From Patescibacteria group bacterium (lineage in GTDB: Bacteria; Patescibacteriota; Minisyncoccia; Phycocordibacterales; Phycocordibacteraceae), in contig JAGWVF010000001.1 of assembly GCA_018971045.1 (NCBI GenBank), positions 75,480-139,479 of the forward strand: a stretch of DNA of 64,000 bases, in the 5' to 3' direction. The notes beneath the pieces are model-generated. The model was not told where the DNA came from, did no database searches, and saw only the letters and a program-made list of their open reading frames with translations. Made by a program: the position numbers and the translations under genes. Shown here piece after piece: positions 43,944 through 63,557 of this stretch; position 1 is the stretch's first letter; every line of letters begins with the position of its first letter.

Positions 43944-43961
43944 ACGGGAATAGTAGCAAAT

Positions 43962-44504: not shown

Positions 44505-44558
44505 GAGATTATCGTACCATCCTTGCGCGGATCGGCTGAGTACAGTAGATTGAGCGCT

Positions 44559-45416: not shown

Positions 45417-46742
45417 ATGACAAAGCACGATCTAAAGATAGAGTACGTGGCGCTCTCCTCCCTCCGCCACCCTGAACGAAATCCTCGCATATGGTCGAAG
45501 GAGGCGACCGCACAACTCAAAGAAAGTATCGAACAAAACGGAATCGTTGACCCGCTCATCGTGAACAATGCGCCAGAGAGAAAAGGAATCATCGTCGGTG
45601 GAAATTTTCGCGCAGAGGTCTTGAAAGAAATGGGGTATGACACGGTGCCGGTCGTATACGTGAATATCCCTGATCCCGCGAAAGAAGCTGCTCTCATAAT
45701 CCGCCTCAATAAGAACACTGGGGACTGGGATCTCAACTTGCTTGCTGAATTCGATTCCTTTCTACTCTCTGGCATTGGATTCACCTCCGAAGAACTGGAT
45801 GGGATATTTCCAGCTGAGGAGAATCCTGAGGTGTTCGACCTCCAGCGCGAACTCGCCAAACTCGAAATTACGAATGTCGATATCAAGCCCGGCGACAAGT
45901 TCGCATTCGGCGATTCATTCGTACGGTGCGGCGACAGCATGAGTGAAGCAGACATGCTCGCGCTCATGGGTGGCGAGCAGGCGGATATGGTGTGCACAGA
46001 TCCTCCGTACATACTTGATTATCTCAAAGGGAAAAAGAAGCAGGATGGCAAGGTGACTGAAGGATTCGGTCTGAAACGTGATCGCATCTATCTCGGCACA
46101 ACATCGCTCCCAGACAATTTCAGCGACCTATGGATGGCAGCCGTGGCGAAAGTGCAGAAGCCAGACTTCTCGATTCTCATCTTCGAGCACCCCAAGAACC
46201 TGAAGACCATCTGGACCGCGCTTGAGAAGCATTGGAAGTACCGCAACACCATCACCTGGCACGTCCCGAATCGCGTCCAAGGATTCGCAGCTAAGCACAA
46301 GTTCTTTAACAAACAGGATATTGCTCTTGTGGGCACGGGCGGCGAAGTATCGCTCAATCTCGAAGCCGAGGACGAGTTGTTCCAGAACGAGTACGAGAAT
46401 GCGATTTATGCCACTTCGGGCAAACCGCACTTCGAGTCGTACGAGAAGGGCAAGAAAATCTGCCCCACAGACTTCATTGAACATATCGCTGCCGATGCAA
46501 AATCCTCGGGCCAAAGCATTATCTTCGGCACGAAACCAATCGAGCTACTCATCCCGTACATCAAGGTGCTCACAAAGCGTGGCGACATCGTACTTGAGCC
46601 ATTTGGGGGTAGTGGTTCAAGTGCCGTGGCCGCATGGAAGCTCGGCCGACGATTTTTCCTGATGGAAAAATCGCCCGTGTACACGGCTGTCATCTTGAAA
46701 AGGCTCGAGAAGGTTACCGGCATCAAGCACAAGAAGGTATGA
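45417..46742 (+). CDS. ParB-like nuclease domain fused to N6-adenine/N4-cytosine DNA methyltransferase (phage-type)
   Basis: N-terminal ParB motif (GIVDPLIVNN, GGNFRAEV); MTase motif IV TDPPY and motif I EPFGGSGSS. Confidence 0.8.
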   Translation: MTKHDLKIEYVALSSLRHPERNPRIWSKEATAQLKESIEQNGIVDPLIVNNAPERKGIIVGGNFRAEVLKEMGYDTVPVVYVNIPDPAKEAALIIRLNKNTGDWDLNLLAEFDSFLLSGIGFTSEELDGIFPAEENPEVFDLQRELAKLEITNVDIKPGDKFAFGDSFVRCGDSMSEADMLALMGGEQADMVCTDPPYILDYLKGKKKQDGKVTEGFGLKRDRIYLGTTSLPDNFSDLWMAAVAKVQKPDFSILIFEHPKNLKTIWTALEKHWKYRNTITWHVPNRVQGFAAKHKFFNKQDIALVGTGGEVSLNLEAEDELFQNEYENAIYATSGKPHFESYEKGKKICPTDFIEHIAADAKSSGQSIIFGTKPIELLIPYIKVLTKRGDIVLEPFGGSGSSAVAAWKLGRRFFLMEKSPVYTAVILKRLEKVTGIKHKKV

Positions 46743-47128
46743 GAGGTGCGCACTGCAAGAAGATCCTCATCGAGGAGCTTAAGAAGAAGCCCGTTGTTGA
46801 GGCGGCGTGCCTGAAAGCAGGTGTCGGCAGAACCGCCTTCTACGATTGGAAAAAGAAGGACCCGAAATTTGCAAAAGCCGTTGAGCTGGCACTTCAATTC
46901 GGCAAGGACTTTGTCTCGGACATCGCCGAAATGCAACTCCTGAATGCCATAAAGTCGGGAGACTTTCGAGCTCTCGCTCTGTGGCTTAAGACGCATAAAA
47001 AGGAATACGGAAACCGGATGGAAATCGAAGGCGCACTCACCCTCATCGAGGAACTATCACCTGAAAAGAAAGAGGTCGTAAAAAGATCGCTCGCTCTAGC
47101 AAACCTAACTCTCAACAACCATGAATAA
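46739..47128 (+). CDS. phage terminase small subunit (HTH type)
   Basis: CLKAGVGRTAFYDWKKKDPKFAKAVELA HTH signature common in TerS proteins; ATGA overlap upstream and 8-nt overlap with TerL. Confidence 0.5.
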   Translation: MRGAHCKKILIEELKKKPVVEAACLKAGVGRTAFYDWKKKDPKFAKAVELALQFGKDFVSDIAEMQLLNAIKSGDFRALALWLKTHKKEYGNRMEIEGALTLIEELSPEKKEVVKRSLALANLTLNNHE

Positions 47129-48668
47129 CGACACTGCAAAGAAACCGTTAGACGATGACTCTTTGGACGCCGTATTGAACGACCGCGCCGTACGGCAAGC
47201 CGTCACGCGAGAGAGCCATCTGATGTTCTTTCATCTGTACTTCCCGCACTACGTGAAGTATGCGATTGCGGAATTTCAGAAAGATATCTTCCGCATCACA
47301 GAGGATTTGTCGAACCGTCTCGCCTGTATCGTTGCATTCAGAGGATCCGGCAAGTCGACTCTTGTGACCTTCTCGTATTCACTCTGGGCGATTCTCGGCA
47401 TCCAGCAGAAACGTTTCGTGCTCATCATCTGCCAGACCCAAGCACAGGCACGACAGCATATGAGCAACCTGAAATATGAGCTTGAACATAACGCACTGCT
47501 CAAGAGCGACCTCGGACCCTTCCGCGAGGATCAGACAAGCGGCGACTGGGCGATGTCATCGCTCGTCTTCCAGAACACGGGTGCTCGCATCATGATCGCA
47601 TCGGTGGATCAGAGTATTCGCGGTATCCGTCATCGAGAGTACCGACCTGACCTCATGATTCTCGACGATATCGAGGACATGCAGTCGGCAAAGACCATGG
47701 ACAGTCGTGCGAAGCTCTTCGATTGGTTCACCCGCGAGGTCGTGCCGCTTGGCGATGTTGGAACGCGCATCATCATTGTCGGGAACTTGCTCCATGAGGA
47801 CGCGCTCGTGATGAAGCTGCGGCGGTTGATAGACAAGAAAGAACTCAAAGGCGTGTACCGCTGGTTTCCATTCCTCGATGAATTTGGCGGCTCGATGTGG
47901 CCGGGCAAGTTCGATACCAAGGAGAAGATAGAGGAACTGCAGCAGAGCGTCGCAAATGAACTTGCATGGCGGCAGGAGTACCTCCTTGAGATTGTCTCTG
48001 ACGCAACGCGCGTCATTCATCCCGAGTGGATCCATCACTACAAGAAAATGCCCGCGACCACTGCTGCCAATGTCTACCGCGAGGCATACATCGGCATGGA
48101 CTTGGCGATCTCAGAACGGGAGAAGGCGGACAAGACCGCCATGGTCGTCGGACGGGTATTCGGCTGGGGTACCGATATGCGCATATACATTCAACCGAAT
48201 CCTGTGAACGAGAGGATGGACTTCCCGACGTCGCTTGAGAAAGCAAAGGTTCTGTCATCGACGCTTGATAACGGCAGGAAGGCGAAGATGTATATCGAGG
48301 ACAATATGTATCAGCGCGCTCTACCGCAGATGCTACAACTCGCCGGATATCCTGCCTTCGGTGTTGTGTCGCTCGGAGACAAGCGGTCGCGTATCGCGCT
48401 CATCAGCCACCTCATCAAGCAAGGCGTCGTCCTATTCCCCGAGACTGGGTGCGAGGAGATGATCTCTCAACTCACTGACCTCGGCAGAGAGCCGCATGAT
48501 GACTTGGCGGATGCCCTCGCGCTTCTCGTGTCAGAAGTGTCGAAATTGAATCAGGTGTATCAGCCATTTCCTGACCCGAGCAGATACTGGTCGAAAGAGC
48601 CCGGTGAGGAAGACGGTCTTGATAACAGCTACCCGATTACGAGAGGTATGAGAGACATGATTTTTTAG
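47121..48668 (+). CDS. phage terminase large subunit
   Basis: Walker A AFRGSGKST, Walker B MILDDIED, C-terminal RNaseH-like nuclease region (IGMDLA, ...DD); 515 aa. Confidence 0.8.
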   Translation: MNNDTAKKPLDDDSLDAVLNDRAVRQAVTRESHLMFFHLYFPHYVKYAIAEFQKDIFRITEDLSNRLACIVAFRGSGKSTLVTFSYSLWAILGIQQKRFVLIICQTQAQARQHMSNLKYELEHNALLKSDLGPFREDQTSGDWAMSSLVFQNTGARIMIASVDQSIRGIRHREYRPDLMILDDIEDMQSAKTMDSRAKLFDWFTREVVPLGDVGTRIIIVGNLLHEDALVMKLRRLIDKKELKGVYRWFPFLDEFGGSMWPGKFDTKEKIEELQQSVANELAWRQEYLLEIVSDATRVIHPEWIHHYKKMPATTAANVYREAYIGMDLAISEREKADKTAMVVGRVFGWGTDMRIYIQPNPVNERMDFPTSLEKAKVLSSTLDNGRKAKMYIEDNMYQRALPQMLQLAGYPAFGVVSLGDKRSRIALISHLIKQGVVLFPETGCEEMISQLTDLGREPHDDLADALALLVSEVSKLNQVYQPFPDPSRYWSKEPGEEDGLDNSYPITRGMRDMIF

Positions 48669-49449: not shown

Positions 49450-49610
49450 GGTTTGCTGGTCGCGATTTGTAATGCCCGGAGGAGAGACGCACTGAACCCG
49501 CCACCGGGTGGGTCTTGCGACCCGACAAGGATTTCTCCCTGCCACGCGACCAGCGTTCCCCGATGACGGGTTCAGTACGCTGGTCGCGATTTTCGGCCAT
49601 GCCGGGAGAA
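49450..49610 (-). promoter_or_regulatory. structured 5' leader with alternative helices (putative attenuator/riboregulator)
   Basis: Minus-strand leader carries AATCGCGACCAGCG ... CGCTGGTCGCG ... AATCGCGACCAGC (segment 2 can pair with 1 or 3; segment 3 ends ~6 nt before the ATG), plus CTGAACCCG/CGGGTTCAG and a duplicated ATCCTTGT. Confidence 0.3.
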
Positions 49611-49902
49611 TCACAAGGATCCTCAAGCCGGTTTAGGCCTCTTTATTCGGTTTACAAGAACATGATAGCTCATTCGGGACTATCGTTGTAGACCCTAGCT
49701 TAGTATTGGAGGCTTGCGAAGGTGGTAGCTTTGCGTCCTTATGTAGGGCTCGGAATTCTGGTTCCGCACCCCTTCTGTTCCTGGTGGATTTGTGTGTGGT
49801 GAATGTTGAAAGTGGCAAGGTCATGGAATTGCCTGTGCGGGGTACCTAATCAGCTACTCATTTCGATATAAATCTGGTAAACTACAGGTAAGTTGGATTT
49901 AC

Positions 49903-50103
49903 ATGTCAAATCGCAAACAAATACCCAAAGACGAGATTATTACCCTGCAAGAGGCGTGCGAGATTTTCAATAGTCATTTGAATACGCTTCATAACGGGGA
50001 CAACAAAAAGGATACTTTAAGCGGTTTGTTTTGGTATGAGACGTGTCCAGAAATATCGAAAAGTTCAGGTGCTAAATCTTTTACGCAAAAGAAAATGATA
50101 TGA
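49903..50103 (+). CDS. small hypothetical protein at 5' edge of the AT-rich gene cluster
   Basis: 66 aa; first ORF after the GC drop; no family recognised. Confidence 0.3.
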   Translation: MSNRKQIPKDEIITLQEACEIFNSHLNTLHNGDNKKDTLSGLFWYETCPEISKSSGAKSFTQKKMI

Positions 50104-51614
50104 ACTTCTTTACTTCAGCTCGTCGAAATAGGGAACCTGCGGCATCATTTGTTGTTGAATCAACTGGATCAGTATTTACCTACTCCCATTTAGATGCGTT
50201 ATCAGCTCAATTCGTCAACACTCTTGTCAAGCTTGGAGTAAGAAAAGGAGATAGGGTAATGGTATGTGCAGAAAAAAGCCTAGAAGCATTAGTAGTGTAT
50301 ATTGCTTGTTTGCGCGCAGGGTTTATTTTTGTACCAATTAATCCAGCATACACCAAAGCCGAATTAGAGTATTTTATTACAGATGCGCGCCCTGCGATAA
50401 TTATTGTTGATCCAGATAAGAAGAAAGACATCCATTCAATTCCACGAGCACTAAATATGCTTATTGAAACTCTTGGGGTGGATGGGAGAACAGGATCCTT
50501 CTTAGAGAAGGTAAGAGAAATGCCTGCCAAGTTCAACGATGTTGAATGTGATGATGATGATTTGGCAGCAATAGTCTATACGTCTGGAACAACCGGGAGG
50601 TCTAAGGGTGCAATGATTAGCCATAATAACCTGCGATCAAATGCGGAGGCACTTTGTCAAAGTTGGCGATTCTCAAATTCGGATGTGTTACTTCACGCAC
50701 TACCGATTTTCCATGTCCACGGACTTTTTGTTGCAACTAATGTAACACTTACAGCGGGCTCATCAATGATCTTTCTTCCCAGTTTTGAGGTTAATGAAGT
50801 CATCAGTCATTTGCCGCGTGCCACAGTTATGATGGGCGTGCCAACCTTCTACACTCTACTTCTGCAGGATGGACGGCTTACGCGGGATTTGGTCGAGCAT
50901 ACTAGATTATTTATTTCCGGTTCGGCCCCGTTATTGGTGGAAACACATAGAGAGTGGTTGGAGAGAACGGGGCATGAAATATTGGAGCGCTATGGCATGA
51001 CAGAGGCCGGCATGATAACTTCCAATCCTTATAATGGAGAACGTGTTCCTGGTGCAGTTGGATTTCCTCTGCCAGGCATAATTCTGCGCATAGTCGATCA
51101 GAACACCAAGGAACTTCTAGCTAATGGTCAAGTTGGCTCAATTGAAATCAAAGGGCCTAACGTTTTTAAGGGATATTGGCAAATGCCGGAAAAGACCAAG
51201 GATGAATTTCGAGAAGATGGTTTCTTTGTGACTGGTGATTTGGGGTTTATAGACGACAAAGAGTATGTTCATGTCATAGGTAGGCAGAAAGATTTAATCA
51301 TTACATGCGGACTTAATGTATATCCTAAAGAAATAGAGGAAAATCTTAACAAGATTCTCGGAATAACTGAAAGTGCTGTCATAGGCGTGCCGCATCATGA
51401 ATTTGGGGAAGGTGTTGTTGGGGTGGTAGTCAGTAAAAAGCACAACTTGTCAGAAGAGCAAATATTAGTTGAATTAAAGAAGAATCTGGCACCTTATAAA
51501 ATCCCACTAAAGATATTTCTGGTTGACGTACTCCCAAGAAATATTATGGGAAAGGTCCAGAAAAGCGCCTTGCGGGCATCGTACAGTAATTTATTTACGC
51601 GAAAATATGAATAG
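50100..51614 (+). CDS. matB: malonyl-CoA synthetase (MatB-type acyl-CoA synthetase)
   Basis: AMP-binding motifs YTSGTTGRSKGAM, ...ALPIFHVHGLFVATNVTL..., GPNVFKGYW, GKVQK; long stretches near-identical in pattern to rhizobial MatB as recalled. Confidence 0.8.
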   Translation: MNFFTSARRNREPAASFVVESTGSVFTYSHLDALSAQFVNTLVKLGVRKGDRVMVCAEKSLEALVVYIACLRAGFIFVPINPAYTKAELEYFITDARPAIIIVDPDKKKDIHSIPRALNMLIETLGVDGRTGSFLEKVREMPAKFNDVECDDDDLAAIVYTSGTTGRSKGAMISHNNLRSNAEALCQSWRFSNSDVLLHALPIFHVHGLFVATNVTLTAGSSMIFLPSFEVNEVISHLPRATVMMGVPTFYTLLLQDGRLTRDLVEHTRLFISGSAPLLVETHREWLERTGHEILERYGMTEAGMITSNPYNGERVPGAVGFPLPGIILRIVDQNTKELLANGQVGSIEIKGPNVFKGYWQMPEKTKDEFREDGFFVTGDLGFIDDKEYVHVIGRQKDLIITCGLNVYPKEIEENLNKILGITESAVIGVPHHEFGEGVVGVVVSKKHNLSEEQILVELKKNLAPYKIPLKIFLVDVLPRNIMGKVQKSALRASYSNLFTRKYE

Positions 51615-53055
51615 CAACAACGATAGAAACGAACGGAAGGAAATAACAAAACGTAGCGAAGATTATTCGCAATGGTATCTGGACGTCATCGCCGCGGCAG
51701 ATCTTGCAGAAAATGGTCCGGTACGCGGCACCATGATAATAAAGCCGTATGGCTATGCGATTTGGGAGCGCATACAGCGTATTCTTGATGAACATTTCAA
51801 GGAGCTAAACATAAAAAATGCCTATTTCCCTTTATTTATTCCAGAAAGGTTGCTCAAGCGTGAGACAGAGCATGTAGAAGGTTTTGCACCGGAGGTTGCT
51901 GTTGTGACTCATGCTGGTGGCAAGAAGCTTGAGGAACCACTGGTGGTGCGTCCAACGTCCGAGACAATCATGTACGAGACGTTTTCAAACTGGGTACAAT
52001 CATATCGCGATCTGCCACTTCTTATAAACCAGTGGGCAAATGTGGTGAGGTGGGAAATGCGTCCACGTCTCTTTTTGCGCACAACCGAATTTCTATGGCA
52101 AGAGGGGCATACGGTACACGAATCAATGAAGGAAGCAGATGCGTGGGCTCGACAAATGCTTAGTGTCTATCAGTATCTAGCAGAACAGGTGATGGCCATT
52201 CCGGTTATCCCAGGAATAAAATCGGAGTCCGAGAAATTTGCCGGAGCGTTCTGCACCTACACGATTGAGGCAATGATGCAGGACGGCAAAGCACTTCAAT
52301 TCGCAACGTCCCACAACTTAGGTACAAACTTCGCGAAAGTATTCAACGTGTCTTTTTTGGACCGAGATGGAAATCGTCAATACGGTTCGCAGACAAGCTG
52401 GGGATTATCTACGCGTACGATTGGTGGTCTCATTATGGCCCACAGCGACGACAAAGGGCTTGTCTTGCCCCCCTGGCTCGCCCCTATTCAGGTAGTTATT
52501 ATAACCATCGGACATGCCGACAGTACTGGTGTGGTCGAACAAAAAGCTAGAGAAATTGCTGAAGAGCTTAAAAAGGCGGGTATTCGAGTTGAAATTGATG
52601 CGCGGCAACTGCGTCCTGGAGAGAAGTTTTATGAATGGGAGAAGAAAGGGGTTCCAGTACGGATTGAGCTCGGCCCTAAGGATCTCGCAAACAATGAGGC
52701 GATTCTTGCTCGGCGAGATGGTGGTGAAAAAGTTAGCATCCCAGTTAACTTTCTAGCTAGAAAAATAAATTCCCTTCTGGCAGACATTCAAACGAATTTA
52801 TACAAAAAGGCTTCGCAAAACATGGTATCCAAAATCAAGAAAGTCGATACTTGGGACGAATTCTCTCGAGCCGTTGAGGCAGGCAACTTCGTTCTTGCTC
52901 ATTGGTGTGGTGACGCAGAGGTCGAGAAGCAAATTAAAGAGGAGACGGGTGCAACTATACGATGCATTCCGTTTGAACAAAAGGCTGAGGATGGTGAATG
53001 TGTGAAGAGTGGGAAACCATCCGTTACGCGTGTAATATTTGCCAAGGCGTATTAA
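51607..53055 (+). CDS. proS: prolyl-tRNA synthetase (archaeal/eukaryote-like class II type)
   Basis: Class II motifs and ProRS-specific region RPTSETIMYETFSNWVQSYRDLPLLINQWANVVRWEMRPRLFLRTTEFLWQEGHT; start at MNSNNDR overlapping the matB stop. Confidence 0.85.
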   Translation: MNSNNDRNERKEITKRSEDYSQWYLDVIAAADLAENGPVRGTMIIKPYGYAIWERIQRILDEHFKELNIKNAYFPLFIPERLLKRETEHVEGFAPEVAVVTHAGGKKLEEPLVVRPTSETIMYETFSNWVQSYRDLPLLINQWANVVRWEMRPRLFLRTTEFLWQEGHTVHESMKEADAWARQMLSVYQYLAEQVMAIPVIPGIKSESEKFAGAFCTYTIEAMMQDGKALQFATSHNLGTNFAKVFNVSFLDRDGNRQYGSQTSWGLSTRTIGGLIMAHSDDKGLVLPPWLAPIQVVIITIGHADSTGVVEQKAREIAEELKKAGIRVEIDARQLRPGEKFYEWEKKGVPVRIELGPKDLANNEAILARRDGGEKVSIPVNFLARKINSLLADIQTNLYKKASQNMVSKIKKVDTWDEFSRAVEAGNFVLAHWCGDAEVEKQIKEETGATIRCIPFEQKAEDGECVKSGKPSVTRVIFAKAY

Positions 53056-53069
53056 GTGTAGTAATTAAT

Positions 53070-53864
53070 ATGCTTGAAAATGTTTTGGAGCTAAAGAATT
53101 TGCCAATTCCGCAACCAGGTTTTGATGTTGAATTGGTCAGAAATTATCAAGGTGTGAAGATCAATAAGGAAGGTTCGTTCTTCCGAGAAGAATTAGTTGA
53201 TATTCGAACCCTTGGTGTGAAGGGGTTGAACTACTATAATTCCACCTTCAATCCACCTTACTATCAATCCATTCCTGGATCTATTTCTTCATTGAAAGTG
53301 CGTAAGACAGTAGCTGAGAAGCTAGCGGCAGTAAATGAGAAGTTAAAAACAATCGGCCTCGAAATTTTTGTTTTTGATGCTTTCCGGCCGCTTGCTGTTC
53401 AGAACTATTTTTATTATGAGTGGGTCCCACGATATTTGCGCTCGATATATCCAGATAAAGATGAATTGTGGATTCTCCAGGAGTCCAATGCCTATTGGGC
53501 TAAGGGGGCCAGAAACAAAGATGAGCTATTGGCGTCTGCTCCGCCACATTCGACTGGTGGAGCGGTGGATATGACGTTTTGTTTTAAGGAGACGGGACAT
53601 TTGCTTGAAATGGGATCCATTTTTGATGATATAACAGAAAAATCCCACACTATTTTCTTCGAAAAAGATTTGGATCTCAAGAGCTTTACGGCCACAGAAG
53701 CGATGAAGAATCGTCGATTACTTTATCACCTGATGACGACGGAAGGGTTCGCTTCTCACCCGAAAGAATGGTGGCACTTCAGTTATGGGGATCAAATGTG
53801 GGCATTAATTACTAACCAGGCTGAAGCATTATATGGTTATGCAGGCAATGACTTCCAAACATAA
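53070..53864 (+). CDS. VanX-family D-Ala-D-Ala dipeptidase (peptidase M15D)
   Basis: Zn-ligand motifs SAPPHSTGGAVDMTF (SxHxxGxAxD) and KEWWHFSYG (EWWH); start moved to MLENVLELK. Confidence 0.75.
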   Translation: MLENVLELKNLPIPQPGFDVELVRNYQGVKINKEGSFFREELVDIRTLGVKGLNYYNSTFNPPYYQSIPGSISSLKVRKTVAEKLAAVNEKLKTIGLEIFVFDAFRPLAVQNYFYYEWVPRYLRSIYPDKDELWILQESNAYWAKGARNKDELLASAPPHSTGGAVDMTFCFKETGHLLEMGSIFDDITEKSHTIFFEKDLDLKSFTATEAMKNRRLLYHLMTTEGFASHPKEWWHFSYGDQMWALITNQAEALYGYAGNDFQT

Positions 53865-54636
53865 ATTCTGGCAGATTACGCCCCGTTTCTCGCCAGACAC
53901 AAAAAGTCTGATGGATGTTTGCGTTCATATCGCTCGGGTTCCCACAGACGGCTTGCTGTTGGAGGATTGTCTTAAAGTTTTGGACAGAACAGAACGTGAG
54001 AGAGCGCAGTCTTTTCGATTTGTCGAGGACAGAAATGCCTATATTACCGCACACGCATTACTGCGTTTTGCAATGAGCCATCGTTCCCGAGTTCTTCCAG
54101 AAGATTGGATTTTCAGAACATCACCTTCAGGGAAGCCGGAGCAAATTAATCTGCCAGGGCAGATGTATTTCAATATATCCCATACGCGAGGAATGGTCTG
54201 TTGCGCGTTATCCTCCACTAGTGTAGGAGTCGACATAGAAAATATTGATGCGCTGAGTAATTTTGGAAACCTGGATCCCCTCTTCAACAAGGAGGAAATC
54301 AATGAGGTCAGTTGTTTACCGGAACGGGACAGGAATTTCCGGTTTATAATTTACTGGACTCTACGAGAATCTTTGCTCAAGGGCACGGGAGAGGGAATTG
54401 GCGGTATTTCAAGGGACTTCTCCTTTTTTGTTAGTGACAATAAGGAAATCTTCCTCAAGGAGGCACGGCACCCTTCTTTACTGAACGGGTGGAAATTTGC
54501 CACTTTTCTGGTTGATAACCATTACATTGTTTCGGTTTCTACGTGTAATCTTACTAATAAGACTCAGAATATTTATCCGAATTTTAGAGGTGAGGTCGAG
54601 CTGATTGGTGCGTCGCAATATATCAAATCTTTTTGA
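53848..54636 (+). CDS. Sfp-type 4'-phosphopantetheinyl transferase
   Basis: PPTase motifs FNISHTRG, GVDIENI, WTLRESLLKGTGEG. Confidence 0.8.
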   Translation: MTSKHKFWQITPRFSPDTKSLMDVCVHIARVPTDGLLLEDCLKVLDRTERERAQSFRFVEDRNAYITAHALLRFAMSHRSRVLPEDWIFRTSPSGKPEQINLPGQMYFNISHTRGMVCCALSSTSVGVDIENIDALSNFGNLDPLFNKEEINEVSCLPERDRNFRFIIYWTLRESLLKGTGEGIGGISRDFSFFVSDNKEIFLKEARHPSLLNGWKFATFLVDNHYIVSVSTCNLTNKTQNIYPNFRGEVELIGASQYIKSF

Positions 54637-54648
54637 ATTCATAGTCAT

Positions 54649-55491
54649 ATGAACTATTTATCTTCAGAAACATTCGGGGCGGGCGACCTAAACTCAATTG
54701 GATATTTATATCGCCTTGTAGACTTTAAGAACAGGATTGAACTCATTCCCGCCTGTACAGAAAACAATGAAAAATTTATTGCGACAATGACAGAATTGTG
54801 GGCCTTTCTAACGTCCATAGAGGATGATGATGTCATCATTGAATTGCAGGGCGATAAACGATTTCCGTTAGTTCAGCAATATCTGGCTAAAAAATGGCAC
54901 GAGTATATAAGTATCATTGAAACCGATGAGGCCGAGAGATTTCTCTCGAAGACAGATTCCAAAGAGGCTAATTCAATGCTAGCTGAGGAAGACTATATGG
55001 GCGTGAATTATGAATTATCGCTACTCAGCGAAAAATTAACAGGCCTTAGCGTAATCATGGTTGGCTGCGGCCCGTTTCCAGAGACACTAATGGAAGTTTA
55101 TAAAGACAATAAGGATATAAAGTATGCAATCGGAATTGAGGGGAGAAATGACGTATCGCAGCTTGCAAATAGGATTGTCACGAAGGTATTCCCAGGTGTC
55201 GAGAATGTCAAAGCAGTAGCATCGGATGCGGAATCATTTGATTATAGAGATGCTGATGTTATTTTTCTTGCTAATGGACTAATAAAGAAGGACTTAATTC
55301 TCCAAAGAATCTACGATACCGCAAAGGATGGCGTAAAAATTTTAGCCAGAAACCCAATCTTGATGGGCAGGTTGTTTTACGAGGATCTATACTCTTTGCC
55401 TTCCATCCAGTACTTTGTTATTTGCGGTTCGGTAAGGGCAAGTAAATTGAGTGAAACTATTTTGTTCAGGAAGCGTGATAAAATTATATGA
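54649..55491 (+). CDS. nicotianamine-synthase-like (CntL/NAS family) SAM-dependent 3-amino-3-carboxypropyl transferase
   Basis: VIMVGCGPFPETL (cf. NAS VAFVGSGPLPLTS), DADVIFLANGL, VKILARNPILMGRLFY align with conserved NAS blocks by eye. Confidence 0.5.
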   Translation: MNYLSSETFGAGDLNSIGYLYRLVDFKNRIELIPACTENNEKFIATMTELWAFLTSIEDDDVIIELQGDKRFPLVQQYLAKKWHEYISIIETDEAERFLSKTDSKEANSMLAEEDYMGVNYELSLLSEKLTGLSVIMVGCGPFPETLMEVYKDNKDIKYAIGIEGRNDVSQLANRIVTKVFPGVENVKAVASDAESFDYRDADVIFLANGLIKKDLILQRIYDTAKDGVKILARNPILMGRLFYEDLYSLPSIQYFVICGSVRASKLSETILFRKRDKII

Positions 55492-57362
55492 CTAACGCAT
55501 GCTCGCATTTCTTTAAATGTGCCTCAAAATGGCCTAACAAAACGGCACTGGTTTTTGATTGTCAAGAAATAAGCTATAAGGACTTAGCAGATCGTGCGAA
55601 TGTTCTCGCTCACAGGCTAAACATTCTTGGGGTTAAGAGCGGGACTCTTGTTGGGGTGTATCTTCCCAGATCAGTTGATCTAATAGCATCAATACTCGCC
55701 GTATTGAAGATTGGCGCTGGATACGTTCCTCTCGACGTTTCTCTTCCAGAGGGACGTATCAAATACATCCTATCTAATTCTGGAGTGAAAGTTGTTGTCA
55801 CAAGCAGGGAACCTGGTTCAAAAAATACAGCCCCCATTATTGAGGGGGTAGGGTTACTGTATGTAGATGATCTAATGGCCTCTCATTTCAATGAGACGGA
55901 GATAGCAGAGGGGAAGACTGCTTACGTGATGTATACCTCAGGGTCTACTGGTTTGCCAAAGGGGGTTCAAATGGGACATAGTGTGCTTATTAATTTAGTT
56001 GAGTGGCAAAGTAAGGTCACCAATATTTCCGATGGCATTACATTACAGTATGCGCCAGCAAGCTTCGATGTCTCTTTCCAAGAAATATTTTCCACCCTCT
56101 CATTTGGTGGGACTTTGATCTTGTGCAATGAAGACACTCATCGTGATCCAGAGAGGTTGTTGTACCTAATTGCATCTGAAAAGATTGAAAGGATTTTCCT
56201 GCCTTTCATTGCGCTTCAGCAGTTGGCAGAAATTGCGCAAATAGGACAGGTCCCCAGCAACTTGCGTGAGGTGATTACTGCAGGTGAGCAGCTACGAATC
56301 ACCCCAGCGATAAGGGCCTTCTTCAAAGCATCGCAGGATTGTAGGTTAATCAATCAGTACGGCCCAACAGAAACTCATGTAGTCACAGCCTACGAGCTTT
56401 TGGGAGACCCGGTGCGGTGGCCGCCCTTGCCTCCGATTGGGAAACCAATACAGAATGTTCAGGGATTTATATTCGACGAATTCAAACAGGAGGTACTAGC
56501 TGGTGAGATTGGTGAGTTGTATATTGGCGGAACCTGTTTGTCGGAGGGGTACATTAATAATCCATCTCTTACTGATGCCAGTTTTGTCCAACACCCTCTC
56601 TCGGGAGAGAGATTATATAAGACCGGGGATCTCGCACGACTTCTTGAAGACGGGAATCTTGAATTTGTGGGAAGAAAGGATAACCAGGTTAAGATACGGG
56701 GATATAGAATTGAACTGGGAGAAGTTGAGATAGTACTGGCCGAGCATCCAGCTATACGAGAGTGTGTTGTTGACGCAAGAAAAGATGTTTTTGACCGGAC
56801 TAAGCTAGTGGCGTATCTTGTAATTCGAGAAGAATATAAGATGCGTTTAACATCCACCCTATATGACGGTGCCGAATGGACTTCTTTTTTAAGAGAAAGA
56901 GTGCCTGATTATATGATTCCCTCAACGTTTATAGTGTTATCGTCCTTACCACTCACTACAACAGGGAAGGTCGACCGAAAATCTCTTCCAACCCCATCAA
57001 AACAAAGGCCGGAACTCGTGTCTACTTGGGTGGCGCCTGGAAATGAAATGGAAATGAAAATAGCCAAGACCTGGAGAAATGCACTTGAATTGAATGACGT
57101 CGGTGTAAATGACAATTTCTTCGAAATTGGCGGCAATTCTTTACTTGTCGCGTTTGTGCAGCAAGAACTCATGCAGGTGCTGTCAACAAAAATTTCGGTC
57201 GCTGATCTATTTCAATACCCGACTATCCGATCCCTTGCAGAAGAGATAGAAAACCGGCGGAATACCCCTTATACGCACAAACCGCTCTATGGTCACCCGA
57301 AAACAGGCAATCTTTCGCCCGCATCGAAGAGAATAAACGCAAGAAAACGTTATGAGAAGTGA
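55488..57362 (+). CDS. stand-alone NRPS loading didomain (adenylation + peptidyl carrier protein)
   Basis: A-domain cores (YTSGSTGLPKGV, FDVS, GELYIGG, YKTGDLAR, GRKDNQVKIRGYRIELGEVE, TGKVDRKSL) and PCP motif FFEIGGNSLL; no C or TE domain. Confidence 0.85.
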   Translation: MTNACSHFFKCASKWPNKTALVFDCQEISYKDLADRANVLAHRLNILGVKSGTLVGVYLPRSVDLIASILAVLKIGAGYVPLDVSLPEGRIKYILSNSGVKVVVTSREPGSKNTAPIIEGVGLLYVDDLMASHFNETEIAEGKTAYVMYTSGSTGLPKGVQMGHSVLINLVEWQSKVTNISDGITLQYAPASFDVSFQEIFSTLSFGGTLILCNEDTHRDPERLLYLIASEKIERIFLPFIALQQLAEIAQIGQVPSNLREVITAGEQLRITPAIRAFFKASQDCRLINQYGPTETHVVTAYELLGDPVRWPPLPPIGKPIQNVQGFIFDEFKQEVLAGEIGELYIGGTCLSEGYINNPSLTDASFVQHPLSGERLYKTGDLARLLEDGNLEFVGRKDNQVKIRGYRIELGEVEIVLAEHPAIRECVVDARKDVFDRTKLVAYLVIREEYKMRLTSTLYDGAEWTSFLRERVPDYMIPSTFIVLSSLPLTTTGKVDRKSLPTPSKQRPELVSTWVAPGNEMEMKIAKTWRNALELNDVGVNDNFFEIGGNSLLVAFVQQELMQVLSTKISVADLFQYPTIRSLAEEIENRRNTPYTHKPLYGHPKTGNLSPASKRINARKRYEK

Positions 57363-60300
57363 TACAAACAATCGAATAAAGGAAACTGACATTGCAATAA
57401 TAGGCATGTCTTGTCGTTTTCCGGGTGCTCAAAATGTAGAAGTATTTTGGGAAAATTTAAAAAATAGCAAGGAGTCCATTTCATTTTTCACTAATGACGA
57501 ATTGGAAAATGGGGACAAGGAGATAGTAAAAGATCCACACTTTGTTAAAGCTGGCTCCGTATTGGATGAAGTGAAATCTTTCGACGCTGGTTTCTTTGGT
57601 TTTTCTGAACAAGACGCAAAGATTTTAGATCCTCAGCACCGGAAGTTCCTTGAGTGTTCATGGGAAGCGTTGGAGGATGGGGGATACAACCCCGACGTCT
57701 TTAAAGGAAGCATCGGTGTTTTTGGCGGTTCAGGTATGAGTACGTATTTTTTGAATAACGTCCATCCGAACATCGGATACCATCCAAATCGGACGTTCCT
57801 TGAATCAATGGGGGATTTGCAGCTATTAACAGCAAACGACAGGGATTATCTTACTACACGTGCTGCATACAAACTTAATTTGCGCGGTCCGAGTATTAAC
57901 GTACAAACAGCCTGTTCCACTTCATTAGTCGCAGTTCATCTTGCATGCCAAAGTATTCTGAACGGAGAGTGTGATATGGCTCTTGCAGGGGCGGTAACAA
58001 TCTTGTGTCCGCAAAAAACCGGCTATTTATATCAGCAGGACATGATTCTTTCCCCTGATGGCCATTGTCGCCCATTTGATGCGAAGGCAAAAGGAACAGT
58101 TTTCGGTAGCGGTGTAGGGGTCATACTGCTCAAAAGATTTTCCGATGCAATCCATGATGGGGACGCTATTCATGCAGTCATTAAGGGAACGGCAGTAAAT
58201 AATGATGGGGCAGTTAAAGTGGGGTATTCTGCGCCAAGCGTAAATGGACAATCGGCAGTAATTGAAGAGGCTATGGCGGTTGCCGATGTTGAACCGACGA
58301 ATGTTACTTACATTGAGGCACACGGGACGGCAACACAGATTGGTGATCTTGTGGAAGTCACAGCGCTTAAACAGGCGTTTCAAACTGAAAAAAGAAATTT
58401 TTGTGCACTCGGTAGCGTAAAATCGAATGTTGGGCACCTTGCTTGGGCTTCAGGGATGGCGGGGCTTATAAAAGTTATTCTCGCGCTTAAACATAAAAAG
58501 ATTCCAGCTACTCTCAATTTCGAGAAGGCGAATTCTCAGATAGATCTTGAGAACTCCCCTTTCTATGTCAATGCCGACCTTGTTGACTGGGAGACAGACA
58601 GCACAAGAACCGCAGGAGTCAGCGCTTTTGGTCTTGGTGGCACAAACGCACACATAGTTTTAAGCGAGGTTTCGGGAGCAAAAACCTCTGATCTCAAAAA
58701 AGACGACAGTCATATTTTCACATTGAGTGCCAGAAACGAAGGGGATCTCAGAACGCTTGCTGAGCGATATGTACAATTCTTAAACAAAACAACAGAAGTG
58801 TCCTTAGTCGATATTTGCTATACGTCGAATATAGGTAGAAGGCACCTCGATAAGAGGTTGGGATTCGTAGTCTCATCGGTGTCTGAACTTCAAGAGAAGT
58901 TGCGGTGTTTCATTGATTGCGTTTCTATACAAAAATACGTTCAGTCACGACTACAAAGTAGTGCAGCAATACATATGAGCGAGAGGGCACAAGTATTGGT
59001 TCGTCTGGCACAACAGTATGAATCTGGTGTGAATGTTGATTGGGGGACTGTATATACCGGATGGGCGGGACAGAGAGTTCACATGCCAACCTACCCATTT
59101 CAACGAAATGAATACTGGATAGAATCTATTGCAAAACTCAGACCAGCACAGAGGAATGAACAGATGGACTTGGCGGGTAACCTGTATGATATGCAGTATG
59201 AAAAACTGCCGCTATACGGAAGCGCCTCACGATATCTACCAAGTGTTCAACAGCTAAGCAGGGAATTGAATAAGAGATTTAAGGAGATAGCCGTGTCGTC
59301 TGGAATGAAGGGCTACACTAAAGAGTTGAATTTGCTGGAGAAAATCAGTTACCAAATGATTATTAACGCTTTTGTTCAACTCGGCTGTAAGTTTGATGTA
59401 AAGAACATCACAACAGAAGAGTTCGTGCGGCGATTTAATGTAGTTCCTCAATACAAGAAACTCATAGATAGATTTTTTGAGATTCTTGAGGAAGAGGGGG
59501 TTGCGAGCCGGGATGATTTTCACTGGAAGTTGCTCAAAAAGCCAAAAATTGCGGACGTTTTATTAACAGGGCAGAAGCATAGTTTATGTGAATTTGATTT
59601 TCTAAATCGTTGTGGTTCTAATCTCGCAGATGTTCTGCGTGGAGTAAAAAGTCCATTGGATTTGCTGTTTCCAAATGGAGACACTTCTCTTCTAAAAAAG
59701 CTGTATAGTGAATCACCCACCCTGAAAGCAATGAATATGCTTGTCGCCGAAGCAGTTTCATTGCTGGAACAGAGTACTCCGAAAAAAATGGGTTTAAGGA
59801 TCTTAGAGATAGGCTCTGGGACTGGTAGTGCCACCGCATCTGTTTTGTCGAAACTCTCATCCAGTAAGACCGACTACACATTCACCGACTTATCAAACAG
59901 CTTCATATCGGAAGCGAAAAATAATTTTGTAGATTATTCTTGCATATCATATGCGCAGCTTGATATAGAAAAAACCCCAAGTACCCAAGGTTTTTCTGAG
60001 GAGAAGTATGATGTAATTATTGCTGCAAATGTTTTACACGCGACTCAAGATTTGAGGGGGGCCATTTCTAATGTCAATAAATTATTGGCTCCTGGCGGAA
60101 TATTGATCCTTCTTGAAGGAACGGCACCTGTACGTTGGGTCGATCTCACCTTTGGTTTAACAGATGGGTGGTGGCATTTTACTGATTATGACCTAAGATC
60201 TCGCTATCCACTTTTACCGCCCAAAGAATGGGAAAGGGAATTGCTAAATCATGGCTTTGCTGAGGTAGAAACTCTGACGTCAGAGGAAATTGGTTCCTCA

Positions 60301-63300
60301 ATTAAAATTGATGGAGGCTTGCCGCAAGCAGTCATTCTTGCCAAGAAAAATTCTACAGTCTATCAGTCCACCCATCAAACCTGGGTTATTTTTGCGGACA
60401 GAAGCGGCACGAGCGACATTTTGATTAAACGGCTTACAGAGCGCGGCGATAACTGCATTGTAGTTCAAAGGGGAGATTTCTTCAGAGAAGAAGTTGCTAA
60501 TCAGAAATACACAATCAATCTTTTTAGACCGGAAGATTTTGAGGATTTGTTTGAGCATATACAGCAGCCTATTCATAATGTTCTTTATTTGTGGTCTTTG
60601 GATGAAATATCTGACCTGATTTCTAATCTTGAGCTTCTAAAGCGTCAATATCTGCAGGATTGTGGAGGGTTACTTAATACAGTGAAATCGATACTAAATA
60701 AGTTACCGACACCGCCAGCTCTCTTCGTGATAACGCAGGGAGCCCAGTGCCTGGATGCCAGTTCCGGCCTAGGCGGACTACTACAATCATCTGTCTGGGG
60801 CATGCATAGAGTTATTACAGTCGAACACCCTGAACTTTGTTGCAAAATTATTGATATTGAATCAACCAAACAAGTCACTGATCTCGTAGACGAGTTGTTT
60901 GCTAGAGACAAAGAACATCAGGTGATATTAAAGTCTGACTCTCGATATGTATCGCGAATAACCCGCGCGAGTGTTAATTTAACATCCTCAGGTACCCAAC
61001 CTCTCTTCAAAGAGGATGCGGTCTATATAATTACAGGTGGTTTAGGGGGCCTTGGTATAAAAGTTGCCGAGTGGATGGCGGGTATCGGCGCTAGACATAT
61101 CGCGCTTGTCGGACGACATGAGCCGACAGACGATGTTAAAGAAAAAATAAATCTTTTGATTAAAAAAGGTATAGATATACACGTTGCAAAATGTGATGTA
61201 TCCAATTACGAGTCCCTAAAAAGCTTATTTTTCAACCTGAAGCAGATAGGGCCTGTAAAAGGTATTATTCATGCGGCGGGTGTTATCGACGACGGAATTT
61301 TGCTACAGCAAGATTTTGAACGTTTGCTCAAGCCTGCTTATGCTAAAGTATTTGGTTCTTGGAATTTGCATATTCTTTCTCAGGATGAATCAATAAATCT
61401 TGATTTTTTCATCCTGTTCTCTTCAGTTGTTAGTACGATTGGCAATGTCGGGCAATCAAATCATGCGTCAGCAAACAGTTTCATGAACAACTTGGCGCTA
61501 TATCGTAAATATCAAGGGCTACCGGCAACCGTTATTCAATGGGGTGCGTGGGCCGACATCGGTACATTGGCAAAATATCCCGATGTTGTAGAGAAACTCA
61601 ACACTATTGGCTTTGGGCTAATACAGCCAGCCGAAGGTGTCAAAGTACTTGAGTTCATTTTACGTAAAGGTATTACAGCAGCAATCTTTGCTCCTATAAA
61701 TTGGGAGCGATTCCTCAAATTCAATAAATCAGAAGAAACCCATCTTTTTGCATCACTAGTGTCATCGTCCCAACGGAAGCCAGAGGAATTGTTTGTGGAA
61801 AATTTTGTATCAAGGCTTGCGTTGCTAACGGGGGCAGAGCAGCTTGCACTCATTGAAAGAAAGGTCGCGGAGAATGTTAGTCGAATTCTCGGCCTCCAGC
61901 AGGAGAGTGGCTTTGAGGATAAAGATTTCTTTGATTATGGGATGGATTCCCTGACTTCAATTCAGTTGAGAAATAATTTGCAATCAGATTTTAAATGTTC
62001 TTTGCATCCGACGCTTGCATACAAGTACCCGACAGTACGAAAGTTGTCGGAATATATAGTCAGTGTTGTTAGGCTAGATAGTCGCAGCGGTATTATTTCA
62101 ACAAATCAAAAAGAATTCACGTCTGTTTCTGGTACGAGAGAAATTTCAATGCAACAGAGAAGATGGATACGACTTGCTGCAAAAGATTATGGGCGCCTCC
62201 TTGTCCCCATCTTGTTCCATGCAGAATTGAACAAGAAAGCCTTCCTTTCGGCGCTTGAGCAGGTGGTAAATAGACACGAGGTGCTTAAGTACAGGTTCTT
62301 AAATGATCAGGCTTTTGTTGTCGATGCCGGAACCTTTCTGCTAAATGACCCCGAGTTGTTTGTCGACGCAAGTAACGAGACTGATCAAGCCCTAGTGATT
62401 AAGCAACAGGCCGATAATCTACGATTCTCTCCCCCAGATCCGCGGGACAGACCCACGTGGATGATTCGGTGCATAAGACTCAATAAAGATAAGTTCCTTG
62501 TGCTCCTACATATCCAACACCTCGAATTCGATGGGGCTTCAATATCAATCTTTGTGGACGATTTAAGAATGTTTTATTCGGATTTTGTAAATGGTATTGA
62601 CGCAACATACTTACCCGCTGTTCAATACGCAGACTATGTCGAATGGCAGAAACACTATCTAAATTCAGATATTTCTGAGGATCGAGAATTCTTCAAAAAG
62701 TTATTTTCTGATACCCTCTCCTCTACGATTTTGCCAAACCATTCTGGTCGTAGTTCAACTGAAAGTTACCCATCAGCTTGTTATACGCCATCGCAAATCA
62801 AGGGTCTTTGGAGAAAGCTTCAGGCGGTCGGGAAGAAAATGAAAACATCACCTTTCGCAATTCTTTGTTCAACGTACGCTCAACTGGTTGGAGAAATTGT
62901 AAATAATGACCATGTCGTCATTGGAACGATTGTAAGTAGTAGGCCATCTTGTGAATTCGAAAGGACCATAGGTCCTTTCGTTCAGCCTTTCCCAATGAAA
63001 ATATCCCTCAATGATCCTTTGCGGGATATGATTTCTACGGTACATACCTTAGTCACGGAGATTAATGAAAGAAGTGGGTATCCAGTTGCGGATATGATCA
63101 ACCATATTCCGGCTTTTAAAGAAATGGAAATCGACACTTATTTCACAGATTCGTTTATTATGCTTAATAATTATTCTCGTGAAGCAGATACTCAACCAAG
63201 AGTGGAGGTGTTTGAGTCACTCGGACCAATTTTGGAAGATGGACTGTCAGGCATAAGTCCTAAAAAGATCAACGAAATTGCCGGACTATTCCTAATAGTT

Positions 63301-63432
63301 GATTATTATGAAGGAGAAATGAGGTTCAATTTTTGGTACCATTCACATCGCTTCTTTAAGAAGCAGGTTCAAGAGTGGGCTGATAGATATTCAGATCTTC
63401 TCAAACAAAATATACAGTCACTAGAAGGCTAA
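57352..63432 (+). CDS. hybrid PKS-NRPS megasynthase, AT-less: KS - flanking subdomain - C-methyltransferase - KR (Tyr->His) - ACP - condensation domain
   Basis: KS triad (TACSTSLVAVH, EAHGTATQIGD, KSNVGHL); no GHSxG acyltransferase motif anywhere; cMT LEIGSGTGSAT; KR Rossmann TGGLGGLG but GQSNHASAN instead of NYAAAN; ACP DYGMDSLTS; C-domain His motif HIQHLEFDG; 2026 aa. Confidence 0.9.
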   Translation: MRSDTNNRIKETDIAIIGMSCRFPGAQNVEVFWENLKNSKESISFFTNDELENGDKEIVKDPHFVKAGSVLDEVKSFDAGFFGFSEQDAKILDPQHRKFLECSWEALEDGGYNPDVFKGSIGVFGGSGMSTYFLNNVHPNIGYHPNRTFLESMGDLQLLTANDRDYLTTRAAYKLNLRGPSINVQTACSTSLVAVHLACQSILNGECDMALAGAVTILCPQKTGYLYQQDMILSPDGHCRPFDAKAKGTVFGSGVGVILLKRFSDAIHDGDAIHAVIKGTAVNNDGAVKVGYSAPSVNGQSAVIEEAMAVADVEPTNVTYIEAHGTATQIGDLVEVTALKQAFQTEKRNFCALGSVKSNVGHLAWASGMAGLIKVILALKHKKIPATLNFEKANSQIDLENSPFYVNADLVDWETDSTRTAGVSAFGLGGTNAHIVLSEVSGAKTSDLKKDDSHIFTLSARNEGDLRTLAERYVQFLNKTTEVSLVDICYTSNIGRRHLDKRLGFVVSSVSELQEKLRCFIDCVSIQKYVQSRLQSSAAIHMSERAQVLVRLAQQYESGVNVDWGTVYTGWAGQRVHMPTYPFQRNEYWIESIAKLRPAQRNEQMDLAGNLYDMQYEKLPLYGSASRYLPSVQQLSRELNKRFKEIAVSSGMKGYTKELNLLEKISYQMIINAFVQLGCKFDVKNITTEEFVRRFNVVPQYKKLIDRFFEILEEEGVASRDDFHWKLLKKPKIADVLLTGQKHSLCEFDFLNRCGSNLADVLRGVKSPLDLLFPNGDTSLLKKLYSESPTLKAMNMLVAEAVSLLEQSTPKKMGLRILEIGSGTGSATASVLSKLSSSKTDYTFTDLSNSFISEAKNNFVDYSCISYAQLDIEKTPSTQGFSEEKYDVIIAANVLHATQDLRGAISNVNKLLAPGGILILLEGTAPVRWVDLTFGLTDGWWHFTDYDLRSRYPLLPPKEWERELLNHGFAEVETLTSEEIGSSIKIDGGLPQAVILAKKNSTVYQSTHQTWVIFADRSGTSDILIKRLTERGDNCIVVQRGDFFREEVANQKYTINLFRPEDFEDLFEHIQQPIHNVLYLWSLDEISDLISNLELLKRQYLQDCGGLLNTVKSILNKLPTPPALFVITQGAQCLDASSGLGGLLQSSVWGMHRVITVEHPELCCKIIDIESTKQVTDLVDELFARDKEHQVILKSDSRYVSRITRASVNLTSSGTQPLFKEDAVYIITGGLGGLGIKVAEWMAGIGARHIALVGRHEPTDDVKEKINLLIKKGIDIHVAKCDVSNYESLKSLFFNLKQIGPVKGIIHAAGVIDDGILLQQDFERLLKPAYAKVFGSWNLHILSQDESINLDFFILFSSVVSTIGNVGQSNHASANSFMNNLALYRKYQGLPATVIQWGAWADIGTLAKYPDVVEKLNTIGFGLIQPAEGVKVLEFILRKGITAAIFAPINWERFLKFNKSEETHLFASLVSSSQRKPEELFVENFVSRLALLTGAEQLALIERKVAENVSRILGLQQESGFEDKDFFDYGMDSLTSIQLRNNLQSDFKCSLHPTLAYKYPTVRKLSEYIVSVVRLDSRSGIISTNQKEFTSVSGTREISMQQRRWIRLAAKDYGRLLVPILFHAELNKKAFLSALEQVVNRHEVLKYRFLNDQAFVVDAGTFLLNDPELFVDASNETDQALVIKQQADNLRFSPPDPRDRPTWMIRCIRLNKDKFLVLLHIQHLEFDGASISIFVDDLRMFYSDFVNGIDATYLPAVQYADYVEWQKHYLNSDISEDREFFKKLFSDTLSSTILPNHSGRSSTESYPSACYTPSQIKGLWRKLQAVGKKMKTSPFAILCSTYAQLVGEIVNNDHVVIGTIVSSRPSCEFERTIGPFVQPFPMKISLNDPLRDMISTVHTLVTEINERSGYPVADMINHIPAFKEMEIDTYFTDSFIMLNNYSREADTQPRVEVFESLGPILEDGLSGISPKKINEIAGLFLIVDYYEGEMRFNFWYHSHRFFKKQVQEWADRYSDLLKQNIQSLEG

Positions 63433-63557
63433 CTTCGTTCGTGATATGAAGAACTAAATAAATCACCGAATTTAATAGCAAAGGTTTATCTGCTCCAAAT
63501 GGAACTGAAGCAAAGCAGCATAGACCTCCAAGAAGGAGGTGCCAAATGGTACATATG

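Follow-up and report, generated by a model that had tools for sequence, protein, structure and literature searches.

A recurrent seven-gene NRPS-PKS operon of CPR bacteria with a linked prolyl-tRNA synthetase gene and a possible proline-type product

Why should a VanX-like D-Ala-D-Ala dipeptidase, an Sfp-type 4'-phosphopantetheinyl transferase (PPTase) and an enzyme resembling nicotianamine synthase (NAS) be encoded side by side next to a polyketide synthase (PKS)? The question is raised by a 64,000-nucleotide stretch of contig JAGWVF010000001.1 (assembly GCA_018971045.1, positions 75,480 to 139,479, forward strand) from a Patescibacteria group bacterium, a member of the Candidate Phyla Radiation (CPR). 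The whole of this stretch is referred to here as the window, and coordinates are given within it. A first-pass annotation had singled out the three genes as an unexpected trio, and proposed D-Ala-D-Ala-type immunity or D-Ala supply for the dipeptidase and a metallophore-like product for the NAS-like enzyme. Our results show that the trio is the centre of a block of seven genes (50100-63432, ~13.3 kb), which combines non-ribosomal peptide synthetase (NRPS) and PKS modules with a prolyl-tRNA synthetase (ProRS) gene, recurs in other metagenomic contigs, and may direct the synthesis of a small proline-type compound.

The open reading frame (ORF) listing confirmed three co-directional ORFs at 53070-53864, 53833-54636 and 54649-55491, and profile searches, a fold search and catalytic residues all agree with the families first named for them. 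The trio is hence real, although its boundaries as first drawn left out the most tightly linked gene, a full-length ProRS directly upstream. All seven genes lie on the forward strand, beginning with a MatB-like malonyl-CoA synthase (50100-51614; NCBIfam NF005702, 742.8 bits against a cutoff of 558) and the ProRS, which is of the archaeal/CPR type (51607-53055; TIGR00408 proS_fam_I, 588 bits against 437). These are followed by a VanX-family (M15D) zinc dipeptidase, hereafter M15 (53070-53864), the PPTase (53833-54636), a divergent NAS/CntL-family enzyme (54649-55491), a loading module of adenylation (A) and peptidyl carrier protein (PCP) domains (55488-57362; Pfam AMP-binding, AMP-binding_C and PP-binding) and, lastly, a PKS lacking an acyltransferase (AT) domain (57352-63432). 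Pfam domains give the latter the order ketosynthase (KS), C-methyltransferase (cMT), ketoreductase (KR), acyl carrier protein (ACP) and condensation (C) domain. Distances between neighbouring genes range from -32 to +14 nt. The seven genes are tightly packed; that they form one translationally coupled and horizontally mobile unit is a conclusion we hold jointly with the overall explanation given below, and at the same even balance.

Genome-neighbourhood comparison showed that the unusual co-location is evolutionarily conserved. At least 11 independent metagenomic contigs, most of them from CPR/Patescibacteria, carry the block that runs from ProRS to the megasynthase, and every contig long enough to judge has the same genes in the same order (L002/3, L005/6/11, L007/8/9, L010, L014, L015/16, L017, L013 and the divergent L023/24). 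Order is kept in L023 although its genes other than ProRS are only 24-50% identical. The flanks of the cassette differ, and include a serine recombinase, LexA with an MmeI-type enzyme, HD/HisKA proteins, a zeta toxin or housekeeping genes. Two architectures were found. In the first, an AT-less PKS is accompanied by the malonyl-CoA synthase as first gene of the operon (L002/3, L007/8, L010, L014, L015 and L017), and in two of these contigs the PKS is followed by an opposite-strand gene for a free-standing AT with a GNSLG motif (L003, 13981-15204; L007, 17843-19060). In the second, the megasynthase carries its AT in cis (L005, 12758-19810; L023, 13835-20659) and the malonyl-CoA synthase is absent. 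The operon appears so far to be known almost only from CPR bacteria. One complete cassette, on the 14.7-kb contig L010 (QLUP01000012.1), is binned in a metagenome-assembled genome labelled as Candidatus Lithacetigena glycinireducens or candidate division WS2. This occurrence outside the CPR represents either an inter-phylum transfer or a binning error.

Base composition marks the entire operon in the window as foreign, and this extends to its ProRS gene. Regional GC falls from ~0.55 to ~0.42 at 49.75-50.0 kb, and GC in 250-nt steps drops from 0.54 to 0.38 across 49501-50250; the low-GC operon meets the host-like DNA of high GC within an intergenic stretch (49640-49902). GC at third codon positions (GC3) is 0.56-0.74 in upstream host genes (TadA, ComEC, PolA, PBP and others) and 0.36-0.46 in all seven operon genes. 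At 0.45, the GC3 of the ProRS gene is like that of the operon and unlike that of the host, implying that it was acquired together with the other genes. A higher-GC flank next to a low-GC cassette was likewise seen in L007, which is an independent assembly. Beyond the PKS gene, GC remains low (~0.42) as far as the window reaches (49750-64000), and the right edge of the foreign block is not visible. By the order of its locus tags, the source contig (150,636 bp) probably stops not far from where the window does.

The 280-aa NAS-like protein was placed by its fold. That it belongs to the NAS family, as first suggested, was borne out in this respect, whereas the profile search proposed as a check gave no match to NAS (PF03059) or to any other Pfam family. 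Sequence similarity to CntL is weak (NCBIfam, 16.8 bits against 350; PDB sequence search, E 0.002). For an AlphaFold model built on 13 family members (pLDDT 87, pTM 0.84), the top 12 PDB fold matches were MtNAS and CntL (E 1e-11 to 1e-14, TM 0.64-0.81), and generic methyltransferase folds began only at E 2e-8. In the family profile, E91 aligns with MtNAS E81 and CntL E84, and Y116 with MtNAS Y107; both residues are invariant among the 13 members, and E91 is at least 90% conserved in a set of 50 sequences. The NAS-type S-adenosylmethionine (SAM) loop GxGPxPxT is present as GCGPFPET, as is a DVIFLANG motif. There are 14 close homologues among 5.8 billion clustered proteins, and a HMMER scan of 1.84 billion representatives returned 462 relatives. 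Pfam NAS matched 29 of 49 distant relatives scanned (E <=0.01, best 5.7e-11), and precomputed, weak NAS matches exist for two members of the family itself (P0011 and the L023 homologue). The protein is thus predicted, clearly as far as the modelled fold goes, to be a divergent NAS/CntL-family SAM-dependent 3-amino-3-carboxypropyl transferase. It shares with MtNAS, plant NAS and the CntL enzymes of staphylopine and pseudopaline synthesis the two-domain fold, the catalytic Glu and Tyr, the SAM loop and the D-V-I-F-L-A motif, but is only 15-18% identical to them, lacks CntM, CntK and transporter partners, and is embedded in an NRPS-PKS operon instead. Hence, fold and catalytic residues support the aminocarboxypropyl chemistry first proposed for the locus. 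The opine metallophore proposed along with it does not find such support, as no CntM-type dehydrogenase, racemase or transporter (exporter or importer) was found in any cassette.

The M15 gene is predicted to encode a VanX-family zinc dipeptidase with a complete set of catalytic residues. A protein of 264 aa begins at an internal ATG at 53070 and is the form on record; the mechanically called ORF starts at 52998 and would give 288 aa, a form not on record. It lacks an N-terminal hydrophobic segment, as read by eye from the sequence with no predictor. M15 exceeds the PF01427 threshold (88.1 bits against 27) and matches VanX (1r44) at E 1.8e-12. In an alignment with VanX, all 10 cassette proteins and all 110 other homologues have the equivalents of R71, H116, D123, D142, E181 and H184. 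In VanX numbering, these comprise the zinc ligands (H116, D123 and H184), the general base (E181) and the transition-state Arg (R71), and the intact ligand motifs read at first pass are therefore confirmed. Scores were below the NCBIfam equivalog cutoffs for VanX (54.4 against 320) and DdpX (66.3 against 176). With these two enzymes M15 shares the zinc ligands, the catalytic Glu, the transition-state Arg, an FD motif, the lack of an N-terminal hydrophobic segment noted above and its classification (MEROPS M15D/PF01427). It differs from them in length (~265 against ~200 aa, owing to an N-terminal extension and two insertions) and in setting, as no vanH/vanA or ddp transporter genes accompany it. 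The cassette proteins belong to a widespread long-form subfamily (~260-265 aa; Vibrio, Runella, Hirschia, Bradyrhizobium and others, at 43-52% identity), of which we know of no characterized member. Identity is 65-75% among the closer cassettes, 50-53% in the most divergent versions (L013 and L023) and ~43-54% to relatives outside the cassette. Only Q27 and K232 are invariant in cassette M15 yet rare in the 110 other long-form relatives, and K232, immediately before the catalytic Glu, may reflect a tuning of specificity.

The PPTase (267 aa) matches ACPS (PF01648, 43.9 bits against 25) and AASDHPPT_N (PF22624, 28.7 against 27), and was below the HetI and AusB equivalog cutoffs. It has both lobes, a size within the 230-270 aa range and the motifs expected of the Sfp type (VGVD and WTLRESLLK, with R instead of K in (F/W)(S/T)xKE(S/A)xxK). 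The specificity code of the A domain was read by alignment to the GrsA segment, a procedure that returns the canonical DAWTIAAICK for GrsA itself. The code DVQFIAQVVK was obtained in 8/8 cassettes tested, despite an identity of only 48-59% between their A-PCP proteins; the L023 A domain (39% identity) gave DVQFNAQVVK. DVQFIAHVxK is a documented proline code (PMC2866473). Read in this way, the cassette code is a proline code with an invariant His322-to-Gln change, which points to loading of proline or, more likely, of a close cyclic analogue. The exact code DVQFIAQVVK had no match in the literature. With a proline-like code conserved across the cassettes, D-Ala would not be the loaded residue, which contradicts the suggestion that the dipeptidase supplies D-Ala to the A domain. 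The motifs of the PKS are intact, including the Cys-His-His set of the KS (TACSTS, HGTAT and NVGH), GMDSL in the ACP and HLEFDG in the C domain. The absence of an AT was confirmed, as the window PKS has neither an Acyl_transf_1 match nor a GHSxG motif; it also lacks a thioesterase (TE) or reductase (R) domain. No free-standing AT was found in the window, of which only 568 bp lie beyond the PKS. The subtype of the C domain could not be read from PDB matches, the best of which is an unannotated 'special condensation domain' (8z0q).

The ProRS gene lies directly upstream of M15 in every cassette. The linkage was kept after transfer into a host of 55% GC, and with matB upstream of proS in the AT-less versions, so that proS is there internal to the operon. 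Moreover, the linked aminoacyl-tRNA synthetase (aaRS) is the one of the twenty types that matches the proline-like code of the A domain, for which the chance is 1 in 20. Neither an M15 gene nor a cassette adjoins any of the four non-cassette ProRS genes inspected, the closest relatives of the cassette copies among them, which led us to reject ProRS-M15 as a native CPR gene pair; two of these four, homologues of high identity, are surrounded by housekeeping genes and lack M15. An apparent further ProRS-M15 pair (P0164/P0134) proved to belong to the same cassette, in a more divergent version. Cassette ProRS proteins are 67-79% identical to hundreds of ordinary CPR ProRS sequences, and a cassette-specific signature was sought and rejected. 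The few clade-specific positions are common to two proteins outside the cassette (P0048 and P0062) and absent from the L005 and L013 copies.

Taken together, we give an even chance to the explanation that the trio genes are dedicated parts of one mobile seven-gene operon, which makes a small hybrid of a proline-type amino acid and a polyketide and brings its own supplies. MatB would make malonyl-CoA, and the PPTase would prime the PCP and ACP. The A domain would load proline or a close cyclic analogue, which the KS would condense with malonyl-ACP in a single extension, followed by methylation and reduction by the cMT and KR. The resulting 3-hydroxy-2-methyl-3-(pyrrolidin-2-yl)propanoyl thioester would have a dolaproine-like skeleton. 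In the absence of TE and R domains, release of the chain would have to fall to the terminal C domain, through amide formation with an amine, a mode of release for which enacyloxin and vibriobactin provide precedents. The NAS-like enzyme and M15 are proposed to make or tailor this amine, as they are the only genes left for that role. The NAS-like enzyme would place a SAM-derived 3-amino-3-carboxypropyl group on the amine, most economically making the amine partner itself, and M15 may free D-Ala as the amine for the NAS-like enzyme, in parallel to the step from CntK to CntL in staphylopine synthesis. The embedded ProRS, a putative extra copy of ordinary type, would keep tRNA-Pro charging going despite a proline-mimicking intermediate or product. 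What the analysis shows directly is the gene content, its order and conservation, the intact catalytic residues and the proline-like A-domain code; the mechanism, with the roles of M15 and ProRS in it, is what we infer. Many CPR genomes lack fatty-acid synthesis, and a self-supplied operon would suit a genome-reduced CPR host.

Several observations weigh against this explanation. No residue separates cassette ProRS from housekeeping CPR ProRS, and protection would therefore come from dosage or intrinsic insensitivity, not from a specialized resistant variant. Monophyly of the cassette ProRS was rejected, as two non-cassette proteins from housekeeping contexts nest inside the clade in a neighbour-joining tree. 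In L023, the ProRS gene has host-like GC and sits after hisS/grpE-type genes in a housekeeping neighbourhood, which fits an origin by insertion beside proS, and the linkage may thus have started in this way. What the NAS-like enzyme uses as acceptor and what M15 cleaves are guesses, the supply of D-Ala through destruction of D-Ala-D-Ala is metabolically odd, and the cassette has no exporter. Another account would leave ProRS, and possibly M15, without any role in the pathway, the cluster having inserted downstream of a housekeeping proS, used its promoter and dragged it along. The ordinary character of the cassette ProRS and its position as first gene in L023 and L005 speak for this account. 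It is nevertheless improbable in our judgment, since the linked aaRS matches the A-domain code, the linkage is retained in every cassette even after transfer into the high-GC host, proS is internal where matB precedes it, and M15 never adjoins the four ProRS genes outside the cassette. It is also unlikely, more so than simple hitchhiking, that the window copy is an assembly chimera, in which assembly wrongly attached a low-GC block to a CPR contig of high GC, with a wrong host assignment as the result. The GC step is sharp, intergenic and probably close to the contig end, but the same pattern in L007 argues against a misjoin, and the cassette itself is real and CPR-associated regardless.

The remaining alternatives concern the product. 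In one, the NAS-like enzyme would close the aminocarboxypropyl group of SAM to a ring, giving azetidine-2-carboxylate (AZE) itself or an N-substituted form, in the way that plant NAS cyclizes its terminal unit; the A domain with the His322-to-Gln change would then load AZE, and the ProRS would buffer translation. The NAS fold and catalytic residues, the invariant deviation from the proline code at a single pocket position and the constant ProRS linkage are all compatible with such a route, whose appeal is that it would account for three features together. In addition, ProRS mischarges AZE, proline A domains accept it, and AZE synthases of CPR bacteria adjoin aaRS genes (PMC11794875). The clusters of these synthases, AzeJ and VioH, resemble the cassette in SAM-derived proline-mimic chemistry, proline-type A domains, aaRS neighbours, CPR hosts and association with mobile elements. 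However, they use a different enzyme family (NAS and CntL top the fold search of the cassette enzyme, and AzeJ and VioH structures were not within its top 50 fold matches), and the neighbouring ligases are of class I, not ProRS (PMC11794875). The AzeJ/VioH motifs PFNxxGN and RxxYYxxC are absent from the NAS-like protein, the structurally solved NAS-family enzymes MtNAS and CntL make no ring, the ProRS has no discriminating substitutions, and M15 is left without explanation. We regard an azetidine route as doubtful on balance. Less probable still, and on a level with hitchhiking, is a Trojan-horse inhibitor of ProRS, a mimic of prolyl-adenylate or of the transition state with an aminocarboxypropyl 'carrier', for which M15 would act as a detoxifying or prodrug-processing peptidase like MccF or AcmE and the linked ProRS as a protected copy of the target. 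ProRS (69-79%) and M15 (65-75%) are the two most conserved proteins in most cassettes and are always adjacent, and there are precedents both for an aaRS copy with a hydrolase in clusters for aaRS inhibitors and for aminocarboxypropyl transfer in microcin C. On the other hand, VanX-type pockets take small free dipeptides and the amide spacing of the predicted product differs, only two residues distinguish cassette M15 from its widespread relatives, the ProRS has no resistance signature, and no exporter or uptake-mimicry element was identified. Least probable, together with a misassembly, is the hybrid of opine or nicotianamine-like metallophore type suggested at first pass, in which the VanX-like enzyme would protect against a D-Ala-D-Ala-directed product or provide the A domain with D-Ala. 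The NAS/CntL assignment holds, and an amino-acid/hydroxy-acid product bearing an aminocarboxypropyl group would have chelating groups. The score of the NAS-like protein against CntL is nonetheless far below the equivalog cutoff, the A-domain code is proline-like and not that of Ala, and the ProRS linkage would go unexplained. Moreover, vanH/vanA-like genes were found neither in the window operon nor in any related cassette. With these partners, CntM and transporters all absent, both the metallophore and the van-type immunity readings lack support.

To return to the preferred explanation, a mobile operon for a proline-type hybrid, its parts have counterparts in several known pathways. We know of no precedent for ProRS among the clusters that carry an aaRS copy. 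Those for ascamycin (AcmD/E/F), SB-203208 (SbzA), mupirocin and borrelidin resemble the cassette in having an extra aaRS gene inside the cluster. They differ from it in that the cassette copy is not divergent and that the scaffold of the cassette product comes from an NRPS-PKS, not a nucleoside. Extra aaRS copies, sometimes with hydrolases, have been described in aaRS-directed pathways such as those of AcmD/AcmE and SbzA, and the ascamycin cluster also encodes a hydrolase that removes the aminoacyl group (PMC12945691). Aminocarboxypropyl transferases do occur in NRPS and peptide pathways, although they are rare and come from other enzyme families (PMC11869996). The isonocardicin synthase Nat, MccD of microcin C and the mollusc ACT of bursatellin share with the cassette the decoration of a non-ribosomal or peptide product with a SAM-derived aminocarboxypropyl group, but belong to other methyltransferase-like families, not to NAS. 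Microcin C itself inhibits an aaRS, and immunity to it is conferred by a dedicated peptidase (PMC11869996). We found no report in the literature in which a NAS-family enzyme acts together with an assembly line.

The surroundings of the operon were also surveyed. An Rfam LOOT RNA (RF03000) was detected at 49510-49639 on the reverse strand (70.2 bits against a gathering score of 46.4); it sits exactly at the junction of high-GC and low-GC DNA, upstream of a reverse-strand ORF ending at 48730. A scan for a riboswitch or T-box leader 5' of the operon found none, and returned only this unrelated RNA and a tRNA-Lys. Promoter and terminator scans gave results not above shuffled expectation. The ORF upstream of matB (orf66) had no Pfam match and is not conserved in other cassettes. 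Just before the operon, 45417-48668 on the forward strand encodes a ParB_N/N6_N4 DNA methylase fusion and an ORF resembling the large subunit of terminase, the latter with weak Terminase_6C/6N matches. This region has host-like GC and resembles the remnant of a phage or mobile element. Carriage of the operon by a phage was rejected, as no relatives of the NAS-like or the terminase-like protein were found in IMG/VR. Farther upstream are a tRNA-Lys(UUU) (42878-42952, reverse strand), between polA and a gene for an LTD-domain protein, and a ribosomal protein S20 ORF (43935-44828, forward strand), whose N-terminal extension of 210 residues is probably untranslated.

As all of the proteins fall into known families, none of this is new in kind. 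What appears to be new, as far as we could find in the literature, is the combination: a NAS-family enzyme in an NRPS-PKS operon, the strict linkage of ProRS and M15D, a proline-like A domain whose pocket carries an invariant change, a built-in supply of malonyl-CoA and a PPTase (in the AT-less versions), and mobility among CPR bacteria. Secondary metabolism is generally taken to be almost absent from CPR bacteria, whose genomes are tiny. A conserved mobile NRPS-PKS operon with its own malonyl-CoA supply and carrier activation would be a rare chemical weapon or signal of CPR episymbionts. More speculatively, these episymbionts may exchange a self-sufficient 13-kb mini-cluster for a proline-mimetic compound aimed at prolyl-tRNA charging, either an azetidine or proline-ketide antimetabolite or a Trojan-horse ProRS inhibitor, with the ProRS gene and the dipeptidase as built-in protection and with the first NAS-family enzyme to work alongside an assembly line. 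We consider this broader picture tentative, and rather less than probable. With its strict ProRS linkage and proline-like A domain, the operon is a clean test case for genome mining guided by resistance genes, and, as it is only 13.3 kb long, its direct synthesis and expression are possible. It thereby offers an entry to the small molecules of CPR bacteria, to the role of a NAS-family enzyme in an assembly line, and to whether a bacterial ProRS-directed or proline-mimic compound exists.

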